From: Candidatus Babeliales bacterium | GTDB taxonomy: Bacteria; Babelota; Babeliae; Babelales; RVW-14 | Assembly (NCBI GenBank): GCA_019749895.1 | Contig: JAIEPG010000005.1 | Span: 6,884 to 70,883, forward strand | DNA: 64,000 nucleotides | Direction: 5' to 3' | Part shown: positions 42,417 through 56,258 of the stretch, piece by piece | Layout of the letters: every line of letters starts with the position of its first letter | Numbering within the stretch: the first letter of the stretch is position 1 | Translations under genes and position numbers: made by a program | Notes under the pieces: model-generated | What the model was told of the DNA's origin: nothing | The model's database searches: none | The model's input: the letters and a program-made list of their open reading frames with translations, nothing else

Positions 42417-43001
42417 TTACCGCAGCAGCACCTGCAAAGCACTTCGCTGCACTCGTGCGCCCTGAGATTTAAACCAGCTAATCAGTTCGACATTATCTTC
42501 GTCAACATACGCCGCGGGAGTCGCACCGGTACTATCTACCGCATTGATATCGGCCCCCGCCTCCAGCAAGAGCTCACAATAAACTTGAACACCCTCCTGA
42601 GCAGCAATATGCAACGGCGTCCAACGCATAAAATCACGCGCTTGAGCATTGGCACCAAGCTCGAGAAGAAGCTTAAACTTAGCAAGACGATCTTCTGGAG
42701 TACCAGAGGACACAACACCACTACAGCATTGTTCAGCACATTGCTTAACTGCCTTATGAAGCAATGTTTCCAGCAAGCCATCTTGTAGTTGACGATTAAT
42801 ATTTGCTCCCTGCGCTATAAGCTCTCGTGCTAACACCCCATCACCGGCCTTGATAGCTTGTTGCAACTCCTCATCCAACTTACACTGTTCTGCTGATGAA
42901 AGCTGGGCCTGCGCTGCACCATTATCTGGCAAAGCACCAGCGCCATGAACGCTACTGCCAACACACAAAACTAACGACATAAACATTATTTTTTTTAACA
43001 T
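42417..43001 (-). CDS. secreted ankyrin-repeat protein C1
   Basis: Leader MLKKIMFMSLVLCVGSSVHGA. ETLLHKAVKQ, WTPLHIAAQEGVQVYCELLLEAGAD. Confidence 0.85.
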   Translation of the reverse strand: MLKKIMFMSLVLCVGSSVHGAGALPDNGAAQAQLSSAEQCKLDEELQQAIKAGDGVLARELIAQGANINRQLQDGLLETLLHKAVKQCAEQCCSGVVSSGTPEDRLAKFKLLLELGANAQARDFMRWTPLHIAAQEGVQVYCELLLEAGADINAVDSTGATPAAYVDEDNVELISWFKSQGARVQRSALQVLLR

Positions 43002-43017
43002 GATGTTCTTTCTGTTT

Positions 43018-43560
43018 TTAATTCTTATCTACTGGCCAAACGCGCCCTTCCAAGGCCATTCTTCCCTGCGCATTTTTAATGATAATATCAGCACCACGGT
43101 CAATGAGAAGTGCACGAACTTCTGGGTTTGTTGCCACATGCAACGGCGTGTTGTTGTAACCATTTTTATCAGGCGCATTTATCAAAGCCCCTGCATTCAA
43201 CAGTAACCGAACAATTTCAACGCCACCGCACAGAGCAGCCCAATGCAGCGGCGTCCAACCTAAATTGTCATAAATATTAACCAAAGCACCCTGGGCTACA
43301 AGAAACTCCAGTACGGCCTTGCGCTCTGACGCAAAGGGATTTGGCCTTGCAACAACATTTTGTAACGGCGTTACCCACCCAGGCATGCAGGTACCATTAA
43401 CATTCGCTTTTTTCTCAAGAACAAGTTTTTTAACCCACGCAAGATCATTCTTGCAAGCAGCATCATGAAGATCATAATCAAGATTTGGCGAGTTGGAGGC
43501 ACCATGTACGCTGATCCCAACAAACAAAACTAACAACATCAACATTATTTTTTTAAGCAT
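43018..43560 (-). CDS. secreted ankyrin-repeat protein C2
   Basis: Internal ATG 43560 gives leader MLKKIMLMLLVLFVGISVHGA. WTPLHWAALCGGVEIVRLLLNAGAL, NTPLHVATNPEVRALLIDRGAD. Confidence 0.85.
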   Translation of the reverse strand: MLKKIMLMLLVLFVGISVHGASNSPNLDYDLHDAACKNDLAWVKKLVLEKKANVNGTCMPGWVTPLQNVVARPNPFASERKAVLEFLVAQGALVNIYDNLGWTPLHWAALCGGVEIVRLLLNAGALINAPDKNGYNNTPLHVATNPEVRALLIDRGADIIIKNAQGRMALEGRVWPVDKN

Positions 43561-43597
43561 ACACACAGTCCTATTTTTAAATCTACTAAGCACAAGC

Positions 43598-44419
43598 CTA
43601 CTGAAGACTGCAGGTTTGACTTTTTTTTCTTTCTTCAACGCCAGCATCCCAGATCTCTTGAGCCGTTTTTCCATACTTATTTTTTTGCATTGGATCAGCC
43701 CCAGCTTGCACAAGAAGCGCCCACATCCTTTCAGTCCTTGCCTCATGCAGCGGTGCATTTCCGTTCCAAAAGAACTCATGAACATTTTCAAGACCATAGC
43801 GCAGAATGAGGGCAACTACATCAATGCGCCCAAAACATACTGCCCGATAGAGCTGAAGAGCACCACATTCGCGACTAGGGCACCGAGAAGTACATGGTTC
43901 CTTCTCACACTTCAACAAAAATTCCATAACATTTGGTTTTCCAGACCATACGGCATAAGACAAAATATGTTGCGGGCAACGAGCCCCATGAGCAAACAAT
44001 AATTCCAGAATTTCAACAGACCCTTCGCTAGCCGCGTTATCTACTGCCGTGTCGTTATGACAATCCCTGATATCAACACAAGCCCCATGTTCTAGCAAAA
44101 GTTTGACAGCAACAAAATTGGGCCACTCAGCGGCCGCTACCAGAAGAGGCTTTCCATGGTATGAAAAATTAACATTTGCTCCTTGCTCAATAAGCCCACG
44201 GGCTCCACTCAAATCATGCTTGTTACCATGCATATACGCATACATTTCATGCACAAGATCTTCATCAAGCTTGCGTTGCTCTTCTTTGGAGCGTTGGCGA
44301 ACTGGCTGCGACACTTTTTTCCAAATGCCACCTTCTCTATTCCAACTAACTTTTGCCGCCCCACAACAGTTGTTGCCAACAAGCAGCACCAGCAGTATCA
44401 AAACTATTTTTTTCTTCAT
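43598..44419 (-). CDS. secreted ankyrin-repeat protein C3, CaaX-like CSLQ end
   Basis: Leader MKKKIVLILLVLLVGNNCCGA. KPLLVAAAEWPNFVAVKLLLEHGAC, NAPLHEARTERMWALLVQAGAD. Ends EERKKSQTCSLQ-stop. Confidence 0.8.
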   Translation of the reverse strand: MKKKIVLILLVLLVGNNCCGAAKVSWNREGGIWKKVSQPVRQRSKEEQRKLDEDLVHEMYAYMHGNKHDLSGARGLIEQGANVNFSYHGKPLLVAAAEWPNFVAVKLLLEHGACVDIRDCHNDTAVDNAASEGSVEILELLFAHGARCPQHILSYAVWSGKPNVMEFLLKCEKEPCTSRCPSRECGALQLYRAVCFGRIDVVALILRYGLENVHEFFWNGNAPLHEARTERMWALLVQAGADPMQKNKYGKTAQEIWDAGVEERKKSQTCSLQ

Positions 44420-54965: not shown

Positions 54966-54978
54966 AATTATATAAATT

Positions 54979-55022
54979 AAAAAAGAGGCCACAGTAAGTT
55001 ATTTACTGTGGCCTCTTTTTTA
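54979..55022. terminator. bidirectional terminator between convergent ychF and C17
   Basis: aaaaaagaggccacagtaa-gtta-tttactgtggcctctttttt: a long perfect stem flanked by A-run and T-run. Confidence 0.75.
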
Positions 55023-55034
55023 ATTTTAAATTGG

Positions 55035-56258
55035 CTACTCAGTACCGCCAAGTGCTTCAAGTAGAGATTTTAACTCTGGAGACGACGCAAGCCCGTAGGC
55101 TGTTTTTTCATTTTTATCGCGCACATTAATATCAGTCCAATTGCCTTGCTCCAAAATGAGCCCAAGAACTTCAATAAAATTGTTTTTTGCTGCCACGTGC
55201 AACGGCGTTTGTCCTTCTTTATTTACAACATTGCAAGGTGCATTATACTCAAGAAGTAACTGAACAAGAGCTTTGTCCCCACGCGAAGCTGCCAAATGAA
55301 GTGGCGTTTGTCCTTCGGCATCGCACACATTAACATTAAAACCATTTGCAAGCATCCGCCACAAAGCTTCTCGGTTGCCACGCACCAATGCTGCTTTAAA
55401 TGCACCAAAGCCGGTTACTTGCGGCGCAATTGAAAGATCTGCAAGACTGGTAGCAAGAGAAGCAATATCGTCGCATCTTTCAACTCTTTTAATAGCTCCA
55501 ACATCATAAAGCGCTTGACTACGTCCAGCTGGCTGCCGCGTAAGCGCATCAAGGACATCTTGATTGCCCTTGGAGTACGCCAACTCAAAAGCACTTTTGT
55601 GACCAATAACTTTTTCATGCGGATCTGCACCACAGCGACGCAATGCTCTAATCATGTCGGGATTGTAGACATCAACCGCATGATGCAACAGCGTAAAACC
55701 TTCTTCGTCAAACACGTTTACAAGACCAGGGTTTTTCTGCAACAACGTTTGCAAATCAGCTAGCTTATCATTCGCAATACAAATACAAGCTTGTTCAAAA
55801 ACAGGACTTGGCACTCCTGGAGATGATGACCTGATTGGTGATCTTTGTATCCCCAACTTATAACCAGAACTATCGTCAAAATAGGCTAAAAACGGATCCG
55901 ATGTAGCGGACCCTTCAGGCTCACTTTGCATTGCCTCCAAAAGAACGGGAACAAGAACTTGGCGAACCATTTCATTATCACATTCCAACGCAAGATCAAG
56001 AGCCGTTTGTCCACGACTGTCAGGCTCAGACAAGCCATGGCCAAATTCAATTAACTGCCACGCACGCTCATGGTTACCCTGTAAAATGGCATAATGCAAA
56101 GGAGTTCCAAAATATGAAGCATCTCTTGATGATGAAGAACTAGAACTTGAAGAAGAAGAACCATCTCTAGTACCATCTGAAGAATAAGAACATGATGCAC
56201 CAAAAATAGATGACGTTAAACTTACAGCACATATAAATGCAAAAATAGTTCGTTTCAT
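55035..56258 (-). CDS. secreted ankyrin-repeat protein C17 with poly-Ser tract
   Basis: Leader MKRTIFAFICAVSLTSSIFGA, then a run of 11 Ser. GTPLHYAILQGNHERAWQLI, FTLLHHAVDVYNPDMIRALRRCGAD, QTPLHLAASRGDKALVQLLLEYNAP, QTPLHVAAKNNFIEVLGLIL. Confidence 0.9.
   Translation of the reverse strand: MKRTIFAFICAVSLTSSIFGASCSYSSDGTRDGSSSSSSSSSSSRDASYFGTPLHYAILQGNHERAWQLIEFGHGLSEPDSRGQTALDLALECDNEMVRQVLVPVLLEAMQSEPEGSATSDPFLAYFDDSSGYKLGIQRSPIRSSSPGVPSPVFEQACICIANDKLADLQTLLQKNPGLVNVFDEEGFTLLHHAVDVYNPDMIRALRRCGADPHEKVIGHKSAFELAYSKGNQDVLDALTRQPAGRSQALYDVGAIKRVERCDDIASLATSLADLSIAPQVTGFGAFKAALVRGNREALWRMLANGFNVNVCDAEGQTPLHLAASRGDKALVQLLLEYNAPCNVVNKEGQTPLHVAAKNNFIEVLGLILEQGNWTDINVRDKNEKTAYGLASSPELKSLLEALGGTE

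Follow-up and report, generated by a model that had tools for sequence, protein, structure and literature searches.

The phylum Dependentiae comprises obligate intracellular parasites of protists. Expansions of secreted ankyrin proteins are already known here: the genome reports describe ankyrin-rich islands and 126 ankyrin proteins, 79 of them with a signal peptide, in Babela massiliensis (PMC4378268), and 98 in Chromulinavorax destructans, 78% with a signal peptide, together with a Sec system and vesicles (PMC6561590). A type II secretion system (T2SS) with two gspD copies is described as conserved across TM6 (PMC4776705). The ankyrin array studied here, array C, is a further example from the same phylum and order, and it shares with these accounts a protein design in which a few ankyrin repeats come after a Sec leader, ankyrin-rich clusters with tandem duplications and an inferred secreted, host-manipulating role (PMC4378268; PMC6561590). 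The portions of PMC4378268, PMC6561590 and PMC4776705 available to us contain no mention of an array-specific leader, a fixed miaB/ychF position or leader crossovers. Despite these likenesses, the Babela and Chromulinavorax proteins have no sequence orthology with array C, whose nearest matches beyond the two sister genomes are generic ankyrin hits that cover only part of the protein and do not exceed 44% identity.

Legionella, Coxiella, Anaplasma and Ehrlichia also use ankyrin effectors, such as AnkB, AnkX, AnkA and Ank200, which act inside eukaryotic host cells. These repertoires are likewise large, fast-evolving and lineage-specific, and some of the effectors are nuclear, which the basic stretches of C4–C7 may parallel. 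However, they rely on type IV or type I secretion with C-terminal signals (Ank200 is reportedly a type I substrate), are not known to carry a cleavable Sec leader, and their genes are mostly dispersed, whereas every member of array C has an N-terminal Sec-type leader and 16 genes lie head-to-tail. The Borrelia upstream-homology-box/Erp-Mlp and Mycoplasma vlp/vsa families combine a conserved 5′ leader region with variable bodies; they encode lipobox Cys lipoproteins and are often plasmid-borne or phase-variable. Array C resembles them in its conserved leader-encoding 5′ end, where recombination yields chimeras and changes in copy number, but it has no lipobox, lies on the chromosome and showed no switching element. 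Finally, Wolbachia and Orientia have ankyrin families that are described as varying in number and sequence between strains (Siozios et al. 2013, as cited in PMC4776705). Array C is similar in that its bacterium, also obligately intracellular, carries many ankyrin genes, but theirs are often linked to prophages or mobile elements and are not known to have Sec leaders, whereas array C has no mobile-element signatures.

The reading that we consider most likely, with a probability of about 0.7, is that array C encodes Sec-exported, host-targeting ankyrin effectors that would evolve by birth and death, with the leader as a recombination handle.

Array layout and protein features

The window, a stretch of 64,000 nucleotides, comes from a Candidatus Babeliales (Dependentiae/TM6) metagenome-assembled genome (MAG). 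Its ychF is 99% identical to that of the Candidatus Babeliales MAG JAIERW01, its more distant ychF relatives (60–75% identity) are all from Dependentiae/TM6, and NCBI has exact matches to C6 and C13 among the proteins of a Candidatus Babeliales MAG. Array C is real: 16 successive minus-strand ORFs (C1–C16, 42417–53654) with intergenic gaps of −4 to 98 nt, and a single further minus-strand ORF, C17, past ychF, the same count that an earlier note on this DNA had given. A Shine-Dalgarno-like motif precedes most of the starts. For C2, a longer ORF reaching 43815 was rejected in favor of a start at the internal ATG, 43560. The members are listed below with their counterparts (S numbers) in a sister genome.

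C1, 42417–43001, minus strand: ORF of 194 aa; canonical leader MLKKIMFMSLVLCVGSSVHGA, then ankyrin repeats (Pfam Ank_2 3e-18); orthologue S16, 76% identical, dN/dS 0.42
C2, 43018–43560, minus strand: 180 aa; canonical leader; ankyrin; orthologue S15, 80% identical
C3, 43598–44419, minus strand: 273 aa; leader MKKKIVLILLVLLVGNNCCGA; ankyrin; orthologue S14, about 70% identical
C4, 44486–45340, minus strand: 284 aa; canonical leader; basic stretch; ankyrin (Pfam Ank 7e-15)
C5, 45357–45935, minus strand: 192 aa; canonical leader; basic stretch; ankyrin; no clear orthologue found in the sister genome (27% to S11)
C6, 45956–46675, minus strand: 239 aa; canonical leader; DGWIRVK motif; 67-residue charged helix; degenerate ankyrin-like domain; just 2 matches among 5.8 billion proteins searched
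C7, 46703–47413, minus strand: 236 aa; GTG start; very basic helix (KKKRLKRKSQKKKRRK); paralogue of C6
C8, 47444–48154, minus strand: 236 aa; canonical leader; ankyrin; C-terminal LLGRKLNDGEYP motif; orthologue S7, 83% identical, dN/dS 0.18
C9, 48180–48641, minus strand: 153 aa; canonical leader; ankyrin; orthologue S6, 75% identical
C10, 48670–49428, minus strand: 252 aa; generic signal peptide MKRIMLFLAGLFLNIGLYAAA; ankyrin; LLGRELKPDEYP at the C-terminus; no clear orthologue found in the sister array (34% to S5)
C11, 49464–50006, minus strand: 180 aa; generic signal peptide; ankyrin; no counterpart found in the sister array
C12, 50105–50854, minus strand: 249 aa; signal peptide MPKKIIVLIF...; ankyrin; 48% identical to S4, strict orthology being doubtful because dS > 2
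C13, 50890–51516, minus strand: 208 aa; signal peptide MIKKTFFCF...; ankyrin; the member under strongest constraint (orthologue S3, 78% identical, dN/dS 0.15, dS 0.83); its identical NCBI protein is titled ankyrin repeat domain-containing protein, Candidatus Babeliales
C14, 51537–52013, minus strand: 158 aa; GTG start; 4-nt overlap with the C15 stop; ankyrin (Pfam Ank 1e-6); C-terminal helix
C15, 52010–52864, minus strand: 284 aa; signal peptide whose n-region is not basic; DGWVRI motif; KKKK stretch; ankyrin; C-terminal EQEIEAFREKLLSKVFG
C16, 52896–53654, minus strand: 252 aa; canonical leader; ankyrin; C-terminal helix; first gene past the divergent ychF intergenic region
C17, 55035–56258, minus strand: 407 aa; leader MKRTIFAFICAVSLTSSIFGA, not of the C type; poly-Ser tract; two ankyrin blocks; sister orthologue 80% identical, dN/dS 0.39

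The predicted proteins begin with a cleavable type-I signal peptide and continue through a variable linker, Lys/Arg-rich in six members, to one to four ankyrin repeats, often with a helix at the C-terminus. The N-terminus resembles a signal peptide in all 17 (hydrophobic 10-mer of KD 2.3–4.1, small residues in the c-region), as judged by a home-made heuristic on n-, h- and c-region features rather than by SignalP, and none has a further transmembrane segment beyond it. The array had been described as seventeen ankyrin genes; fifteen pass the Pfam Ank gathering scores, while C6 is sub-threshold (18.2 bits versus a gathering score of 22.3) and a Pfam Ank search gave no match for C7. The AlphaFold model of C6 (mean pLDDT 77) has best Foldseek matches that are all ankyrin or DARPin and all weak (E ≥ 0.012). 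The GW motif and Lys/Arg-rich stretch once ascribed to many members are present, but the strict form [DA]GW[IV].[VI] is found in three (C6, C7 and C15) and a basic stretch of at least 6 Lys/Arg in 15 residues in six (C4, C5, C6, C7, C13 and C15).

Divergence from the sister genome and protein destination

The sister genome, whose ychF is 99% identical with a dS of 0.45, has a collinear array of 17 genes versus 16 in the window. Twelve are orthologous, at 46–83% identity, and each array has four to five private genes. Because the private genes lack a close paralogue, deletion would be the preferred direction of these differences, as judged from the two genomes alone. The dN/dS of array orthologues is 0.15–0.44 (0.18–0.43 for those with dS of 0.31–0.64), versus 0.02–0.07 in core genes (ychF 0.02, the PQ-loop gene 0.05 and the NurA gene 0.07). 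Between orthologues, changes fall on 41% of DARPin-defined surface positions versus 22% of framework positions (Fisher p = 2e-4). As dN/dS is below 1 for every gene, these data do not demonstrate positive selection, and the surface excess is also expected from simple purifying selection on the framework. Both genomes are MAGs, and a 1.8-kb tract is 100% identical between them, possibly from recombination or cross-assembly.

A Sec leader predicts delivery to the periplasm only, and no outer-membrane, C-terminal or host-translocation signal was recognised in the array C proteins. They could thus remain in the periplasm or envelope as self-protection or chaperone-like binders, with no delivery to a host, and periplasmic ankyrin proteins do exist, for example the Bdellovibrio self-protection ankyrin that PMC6561590 cites. 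We consider this improbable: 16–17 paralogues would be unexpected for a housekeeping envelope role, the family is lineage-restricted (2–4 matches among 5.8 billion proteins), its dN/dS is 5–20 times that of core genes, and genes have turned over between two genomes with 99% identical YchF. The available literature on cultured Dependentiae also reads this protein class as secreted effectors (PMC6561590, PMC4378268). The window itself encodes a T2SS-type ATPase (T2SSE, 1e-128) and SecA, as identified with Pfam.

Leaders, paralogues and recombinant junctions

The M[LF]KKIM..VG.SVHGA-type leader, which the earlier note had placed on all seventeen genes, is limited to ten of them (C1–C9 and C16). 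The remaining seven have generic signal peptides unrelated to it, including C17, whose leader (MKRTIF...) is closer to those of array A and the adjacent non-ankyrin array D than to array C. Conservation had also been proposed for about 45 nt around each start codon; it holds for the first ~45 coding nucleotides of the ten canonical leaders (70% pairwise identity), but the 30 nt upstream of their starts are only 37% identical and unconserved apart from a purine-rich ribosome-binding site. Between the window and the sister genome, orthologous leaders and mature parts are 78% versus 81% identical in nucleotides, so the leaders have no extra conservation.

The proposed sub-groups are borne out. 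C6 and C7 (42–45% amino-acid identity) have a basic helix in common, C8 and C10 (34% identical) a C-terminal LLGR.L...EYP that is weakly present in C12, and C14, C15 and C16 a C-terminal EQEIE.FR..L..VFG helix, with C13 joining the group via its ankyrin core. However, these pairs are not the obvious recent ones they were taken for: they are 31–45% identical, and in every pair the members already have orthologues of their own in the sister genome. A self-BLASTN between members recovered the leaders (42–63 nt, 79–84%) and a 185-nt stretch of C6/C7 at 71%, with no DNA similarity outside these. The closest paralogue lies at most two positions away for 11 of the 17 genes (permutation p = 0.004), but similarity does not fall off smoothly with array distance (Spearman −0.12, p = 0.11). 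Nine genes have no demonstrable paralogue past generic ankyrin similarity, and their origin by local duplication is therefore assumed.

We found recombinant junctions on comparison with the sister array. S1 joins a C16 UTR and leader (88% and 70% nucleotide identity) to a C15-type body (70–85% to the C15 type versus 55–60% to C16). In the window, C7 has an S8-type 5′ UTR (25/30 positions, versus 17/30 for S9) and a body orthologous to S9 from +45, and C4 has an S12-type 5′ UTR (17/18 identical) and first part of the leader, with a body orthologous to S13; the C4 switch point lies inside the leader, in the codons of the hydrophobic region. A fourth case is the presence or absence of S17, an extra sister gene with the direct repeat GGTAAGAATTAAA on both sides. 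Thus, three of the four mapped crossovers (S1, C7 and C4) are inside the leader. In addition, C2 and S15 match at 28/30 positions of the 5′ UTR and at just 71% of leader nucleotides, possibly a leader conversion. The sister array differs by whole-gene gain or loss with recombinant junctions; together with local best paralogues and array-specific leaders, these differences support the earlier note's suggestion of birth and death by local events.

Leader similarity could instead be a mere compositional constraint of signal peptides, with no part in recombination; signal peptides converge on Lys-rich n-regions, Leu/Val/Ile/Phe cores and T-rich codons, and the seven members with unrelated leaders fit such a view. 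This is unlikely to be the whole account, since array C and array A leaders are 44% identical over 45 nt, a background well below the 70% among canonical C leaders. Codons for the same residue agree at 0.66 versus 0.38 expected; the Ile5 codon, for instance, is ATA in nine of the ten, a minor Ile codon in the gene bodies. Three independent recombinant junctions also lie within the leader. These observations favor the leader as a recombination handle.

The miaB–ychF locus and the origin of the array

The array lies among the following features.

40933–42342, minus strand: miaB-like radical-SAM methylthiotransferase gene at the array tail (Pfam UPF0004 and Radical_SAM)
42387–42395, minus strand: extended −10-like TGGTATAAT in the 74-nt C1–miaB spacer, identical in the sister genome
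42401–42413, minus strand: GGTAAGAATTAAA, directly past the C1 stop codon (read from the sequence)
53655–53840, no strand assigned: divergent C16/ychF intergenic region, 186 nt, with promoter-like hexamers on both strands
53841–54965, plus strand: ychF, core gene for a ribosome-binding ATPase/GTPase (Pfam YchF-GTPase_C and MMR_HSR1)
54974–55026, no strand assigned: bidirectional intrinsic terminator serving the convergent ychF and C17 (24-nt arms, 100% complementary; T-runs on both strands)

The perfect inverted repeat and its flanking T-runs agree with the terminator noticed earlier. The C16/ychF region appears to be the sole spacer long enough for a whole-array promoter, from which C1–C16 may be co-transcribed, and TGGTATAAT is likely miaB's own promoter. 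A 3′ flank related to GGTAAGAATTAAA follows C2 and was recovered as repeat family D13/D14.

In 51 other Dependentiae loci, miaB (minus) adjoins ychF (plus) across a gap with a median of 318 nt and a maximum of 7964 nt, and none of these gaps holds an ankyrin ORF; the window's gap is 11,498 nt with 16 ankyrin genes. ychF thus sits in its ancestral position, with miaB as its ancestral divergent neighbor. The array is therefore not wrapped around ychF, as had been thought; two separate junctions were colonized. The first, between miaB and ychF, holds C1–C16. The second, from ychF to the PQ-loop/ABC-F genes, holds C17 plus five secreted genes of non-ankyrin type, and the leaders there are different. 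Because the 51 loci have miaB and ychF adjacent without ankyrin genes, the data supports a lineage-specific expansion in place, as the earlier note had argued.

The absence of the array from those loci, and the typically eukaryotic nature of ankyrin repeats, would also suit a horizontally acquired island or host-derived DNA that landed beside ychF. Such an origin is very unlikely: the GC content of 0.42–0.46 is similar to that of the flanks, no integrase, transposase or flanking repeat was found in or beside the array, and the only tRNAs lie past miaB. Moreover, the leaders are bacterial in type and array-specific (33 of 39 genes have their nearest leader within their own array, p = 2e-4), the paralogue clusters are local, both lineage genomes have the collinear array, and protein database searches found no close homologue outside the two genomes.

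It is just as hard to regard the array as decaying junk, relaxed non-functional duplicates heading for loss. The raised dN/dS, the numerous private gains and losses and the barely recognizable ankyrin repeats of C6/C7 point that way, but all 33 ORFs of the two arrays are intact, encode a signal peptide and mostly follow a Shine-Dalgarno-like motif, dN/dS is clearly below 1, the ankyrin framework is kept while surface positions vary, and the recombinant genes are still in frame. An assembly artefact, conceivable for a MAG, has a negligible chance, as six Logan contigs, each assembled independently and drawn from different runs, are 99.96–100% identical across C3–C8 and the C16–ychF–C17 junctions, and internal repeats so small (up to 63 nt with identities not above 84%, plus 185 nt at 71%) mean that the paralogues are too divergent to collapse and mislead an assembler.

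We therefore return to host-targeting effectors under birth-and-death evolution. The family would have grown through local duplications in the divergent intergenic region between miaB and ychF, ancestrally a tiny one, while a separate cluster, C17 and the non-ankyrin secreted genes, would have taken the next junction across ychF. Unequal crossover would delete or re-head whole genes, probably through the ~45–60 nt leader, apparently the sole DNA homology remaining between paralogues; such crossovers would all stay in frame and retain a working export signal. Sec would export the proteins to the periplasm, from which they may be released to the host via the phylum's type II secretion machinery or outer-membrane vesicles. 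In the host, the ankyrin surface would bind host proteins, and the rapid amino-acid change would be concentrated at these canonical binding-surface positions.

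Array C and its chromosomal setting

We located the following features of array C, the tandem family of leader-bearing genes C1 to C17, around the core gene ychF.

42417-53654, minus strand: C1-C16, 16 consecutive ORFs with spacings of -4 to 98 nt
53841-54965, plus strand: ychF, the core gene next to C16
54974-55026, both strands: bidirectional terminator, a perfect 24-nt inverted repeat plus T-runs, between convergent ychF and C17
55035-56258, minus strand: C17, a single ORF on the far side of ychF

Judged from its sequence, the organism belongs to the Dependentiae/Babeliales. 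Its YchF shares 99% identity with the YchF of a Candidatus Babeliales MAG (JAIERW010000001.1, here the sister genome) and 60-75% with those of many Dependentiae/TM6 genomes and metagenome contigs; C6 and C13 have identical counterparts among the NCBI proteins of another Candidatus Babeliales MAG. The window encodes a T2SS-type ATPase (T2SSE), SecA, UvrC, ABC-F, NurA-domain and PQ-loop proteins, and the order uvrC-T2SSE-miaB-ychF-ABC-F-NurA-PQ-loop-secA, kept around ychF across the phylum, is present in it.

In 51 other Dependentiae loci, miaB (minus strand) and ychF (plus strand) are divergent neighbours with a median gap of 318 nt; the gap exceeds 1 kb in 17 of the 51, reaches at most 7964 nt and in none of them contains an ankyrin ORF. 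The corresponding gap in the window is 11,498 nt. Therefore, this comparison of sequences identifies the array as lineage-specific and as the filling of a conserved junction between core genes. Enlarged miaB-ychF gaps elsewhere often hold other lineage-specific tandem signal-peptide genes. At four loci (L003, L012, L021 and L024), the junctions flanking ychF carry unrelated lineage-specific tandem paralogues with signal peptides, and core-gene junctions at ychF appear to serve repeatedly, across the phylum, as nurseries for families of secreted proteins. In a few distant Dependentiae, ychF is adjoined by one or two ankyrin ORFs that lie outside the miaB-ychF gap, have unrelated leaders and suggest small colonisations of the neighbourhood that arose independently:

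L025, 6416-7790: ankyrin ORF next to ychF
L016, 3851-4945: ankyrin ORF next to ychF
L087, 12240-13307: ankyrin ORF next to ychF
L127, 11158-12252: ankyrin ORF next to ychF

The marks of a genomic island or mobile element would be an integrase or a transposase, a boundary formed by a tRNA or direct repeats, and deviant composition. The GC content (0.42-0.46) resembles the surroundings, flanking repeats are absent, and no tRNA lies at the array boundary, the sole tRNAs being at 40711-40881, beyond miaB. The ORFs between miaB and ychF are without exception the 16 genes with signal peptides, which leaves none there that resembles an integrase or transposase. The 51-locus synteny, the normal GC content and the lack of an integrase or boundary tRNA bear out the earlier note's proposal that the expansion happened in place. 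Its picture of an array wrapped around ychF has to be given up: ychF occupies its ancestral position rather than the inside of one array, and C17 lies in the separate, next junction together with five small non-ankyrin secreted genes. Collapse or expansion of repeats during assembly, which that note had named as a possible refutation, is dismissed by six Logan contigs, separately assembled from different runs, that match the window at 99.96-100% identity over both C3-C8 and C16-ychF-C17, and by internal repeats far too short and divergent to mislead assembly.

Five genes (C2, C4, C10, C12 and C16) start not at the first possible ORF start but at an internal ATG that opens the signal peptide, and a Shine-Dalgarno-like purine run precedes most array C starts. 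The anticipated bidirectional terminator of ychF is present, with T-runs on both strands, and the inter-gene spacers contain no comparable terminator. A scan for sigma-70-like promoters returned 28 matches against 26.2 expected, and so no enrichment. Since most array spacers leave no room for a promoter, it is plausible that transcription of the array starts in the 186-nt divergent region between C16 and ychF. An Rfam scan of the window returned two tRNAs and nothing else. The codirectional miaB gene begins 74 nt past the C1 stop codon; the spacer (42343-42416) has no terminator and holds an extended -10-like sequence, TGGTATAAT (42387-42395), identical in the sister genome, and read-through from the array may reach miaB in addition to transcription from a promoter of its own.

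Leaders, ankyrin content and paralogue groups

We scored signal peptides with a heuristic script for a basic n-region, a 7-15-residue h-region, small residues at -3/-1 and no lipobox cysteine, the last judged by eye from the leader sequences. A predicted h-region (KD 2.3-4.1) is found in 17 of 17 proteins and K/R in the n-region in 15, the exceptions being C14 and C15. Candidate cleavage sites include VHG^A, YG^A and AAA^E; the listed leaders show no lipobox cysteine, and the script detected no further transmembrane segment past the leader in any of the 17 proteins.

The leader M[LF]KKIM..VG.SVHGA, which the earlier note had assigned to all seventeen genes, is restricted to ten (C1-C9 and C16), exactly the members of a 63-nt family returned by the repeat finder; the other seven, including C17, lack it. 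Similarly, the claim that about 45 nt around each start codon are conserved applies to the first 45 coding nucleotides of these ten genes (70% identical) and fails for the 30 nt 5′ of the start codon, which show no conservation. Array C and array A leaders are 44% identical, and the remaining seven C genes score 42-48%. The ten canonical leaders share synonymous codons at a frequency of 0.66, compared to 0.38 expected, and nine of them use the rare ATA isoleucine codon. Arrays A, B and C each have a separate leader type. The other tandem secreted-protein arrays of the window are:

12195-21807, plus strand: array A, 12 ankyrin genes, leader MIKKF..LALA.TALPAA
25449-29570, plus strand: array B, six ORFs, leader MKK...AHGAA/LNAV, three with weak ankyrin matches
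56310-58518, minus strand: array D, five small ORFs (116-151 aa), leader MKR.FVF.CALLLSVGS.SAAAG

Array D matches no Pfam family. Four of its five ORFs share an 80-nt leader-plus-UTR repeat, and they are 48-83% identical to their sister counterparts; the sister genome has extra genes there, including one for a 721-aa ankyrin protein.

Fifteen of the 17 array C proteins match Pfam Ank families above the gathering score, so that the description of seventeen ankyrin genes stands for all except C6, which falls below threshold (Ank_3, 18.2 bits; gathering score 22.3), and C7, which has no Pfam Ank match. An AlphaFold model of C6 (mean pLDDT 77) contains helix pairs after a charged helix of 67 residues, and nearly all of its top 50 PDB matches are ankyrin or DARPin structures, at weak E-values of 0.012-0.18. 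Only through these matches and the 42-45% mutual amino-acid identity of C6 and C7 are these two counted as ankyrin members.

The sub-groups C6/C7, C8/C10(/C12) and C13-C16, previously described as obvious recent pairs or triplets, are genuine but old (31-45% amino-acid identity). Outside the leaders, DNA-level similarity is limited to one 185-nt stretch (71%) between C6 and C7, and the other array C members are no closer to each other than to array A ankyrin genes. We found no recent duplicates that would indicate ongoing birth, the highest pair being 45% identical in amino acids, and every recognisable duplication is older than the split of the window and sister genomes.

The GW motif or basic stretch attributed to many members is less common than supposed: the strict GW form occurs in 3 of 17 genes and a Lys/Arg-rich N-terminal stretch in 6 (C4-C7, C13 and C15). 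A role of the GW motif as a common sorting signal was set aside given its rarity and its low confidence within the C6 model. It is a possibility that the Lys/Arg-rich stretches are nuclear-targeting signals; if so, part of the array encodes nucleomodulins. Poly-serine directly follows the signal peptide in C17 (residues ~33-44, 56115-56160) and in two further ORFs (3200-4531 and 4556-5818); the sister genome has a longer C17 tract, so that this tract is a length-variable simple repeat.

Turnover between two genomes and crossovers in the leader

The JAIERW MAG is a distinct relative with a collinear array of 17 genes (S1-S17) from ychF to miaB. We compared evolutionary rates between the two genomes. 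The core genes have dN/dS of 0.02 (ychF, at dS 0.45), 0.05 (PQ-loop) and 0.07 (NurA), while the ankyrin orthologues (dS 0.31-0.64) have dN/dS of 0.18-0.43, C13 has dS 0.83 and dN/dS 0.15, and array orthologues share 46-83% amino-acid identity. Taking the TPLH, hydrophobic-core and GADVN-turn residues of the 33-residue repeat as framework, we found that 41% of surface positions and 22% of framework positions changed in the nine orthologue pairs with detected repeats (p = 2e-4). At the sequence level, the ankyrin fold is maintained while its binding surface changes. This pattern fits functional, fast-evolving binders and is no proof of positive selection, gene-wide dN/dS being below 1 for every gene in this two-genome comparison.

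Twelve genes are shared (C1-C4, C6-C9 and C12-C15) and four to five are private to each genome. C11 and C16 have no sister counterpart, C5 and C10 are 27-34% identical to position-matched sister genes, and S8, S12 and S17 occur in the sister genome only. Because no private gene has a close paralogue, these differences are most simply read as differential loss from an ancestral array that was larger.

The proposal of a tandem multigene family evolving by birth-and-death is largely right. The genes are arranged head-to-tail on one strand, and best paralogues lie significantly close together (local clustering, p = 0.004), while similarity and distance are not significantly correlated across the whole array (Spearman -0.12, p = 0.11); the expected link between relatedness and adjacency thus appears in the nearest-neighbour statistic and not globally. 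Local clustering, private genes and recombinant junctions speak for birth-and-death, and it is the recent births that are missing.

We mapped four structural junctions between the two genomes. Sister S1 joins a C16-type 5′ UTR (88%) and leader (70% nucleotide identity) to a C15-type body (70-85%, compared to 55-60% for C16). The 5′ UTR of C7 is of the S8 type (25/30, compared to 17/30 for S9), and from about +45 onward C7 tracks its orthologue S9. C4 combines the S12 UTR (17/18 identical) with the S13 body, switching at the hydrophobic-core codons of the leader. The extra sister gene S17 is bounded by a direct repeat, GGTAAGAATTAAA, that is single-copy in the window. The crossover lies within the leader in three of the four events, each time leaving an in-frame gene with an intact predicted export signal, and the leader is the sole DNA-level sequence still common to paralogues across the array.

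Concerted evolution would have homogenised the leaders within each genome. Orthologous leaders are no better conserved than mature parts (78% and 81%), and the C2 and C3 leaders are far more diverged than their own bodies, that of C2 also more than its own 5′ UTR. There are hints of patchy conversion at C2/S15 and C3/S14 only; since leaders mostly follow orthology, wholesale homogenisation since the split is rejected. The leader divergence just described, like the synonymous codons common to the canonical leaders, agrees with crossovers placed in the leader. From the breaks inside leaders, the shared synonymous codons and leaders no better conserved than bodies, one can argue, speculatively and with the odds against it, that leader DNA acts as a recombination handle, kept alike within an array and distinct between arrays. 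Unequal crossover or short conversion in the leader would then remove or duplicate entire effector cassettes, or give them a new head, without breaking the reading frame. If true, the parasite would have a built-in means of reshuffling its secreted ankyrin repertoire with an always-working Sec signal. A literature search turned up no earlier account of recombination through leaders in ankyrin arrays.

Searches with C6, C8 and C13 among 5.8 billion proteins returned only self, sister orthologues and generic ankyrin matches, so these searches define no broader family. A metagenome scan with ychF revealed no relative closer than 75%, and the comparison of gains and losses consequently spans two genomes, the window and its sister. 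A 1144-nt Logan contig (P0003) encodes a variant of C8 that shares 92% identity with the window protein, against 83% for the sister orthologue, which hints at a third array haplotype in public read sets. Window-type and sister-type contigs (L086 and L170) both come from run SRR15085119; thus, two populations with differing arrays coexist in one sample. Within the ABC-F gene (59204-61090), a ~1.8-kb tract (59286-61086) is 100% identical between window and sister (dS 0.003), with flanks 83-96% identical and neighbouring genes at dS of about 0.45. The tract reflects either very recent homologous recombination between co-occurring populations or MAG cross-assembly.

Predicted export and significance

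Dependentiae are widespread, almost uncultured protist parasites, and their large secreted ankyrin repertoires are the assumed drivers of host takeover. The array proteins would most likely be exported by Sec, as their sequences predict, then released via the T2SS or vesicles and, by analogy, bind host proteins. Alternatively, and less probably, they may have a periplasmic role. Type IV (Dot/Icm-type) effectors are recognised by the lack of a cleavable Sec leader, a C-terminal translocation signal and a T4SS in the genome; unlike them, all 17 array C proteins have predicted Sec-type leaders, and the 64-kb window contains no T4SS gene, T2SSE and SecA being the secretion genes found.

Ankyrin proteins number 126 in Babela massiliensis, where 79 of them carry signal peptides and ankyrin-rich islands occur (PMC4378268), and 98 in Chromulinavorax destructans, where 78% carry signal peptides and a Sec system and vesicles are present (PMC6561590); the T2SS is kept throughout the TM6/Dependentiae phylum (PMC4776705). 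The cultured repertoires are like array C in design (a Sec leader plus few ankyrin repeats), taxon and evolutionary behaviour, and host delivery is a prediction in PMC4378268 and PMC6561590 themselves. Secreted ankyrin repertoires being already known in Dependentiae, the locus is no new kind of system, and modest extra interest attaches to the crossovers in the leader and to the comparison of two populations.

The worth of the locus is as a record of effector turnover in a little-known phylum. The window and sister genomes form a natural experiment, in which core proteins are 99% identical, both populations occur in one sample series, and their effector arrays, of 16 and 17 genes, differ in entire genes as well as in 17-54% of residues. 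Such arrays are born at a conserved junction between core genes, which in other lineages is filled by different secreted families. The locus also indicates the pace of change and a concrete mechanism by which effector genes could be lost or re-headed, namely crossover in a common leader.
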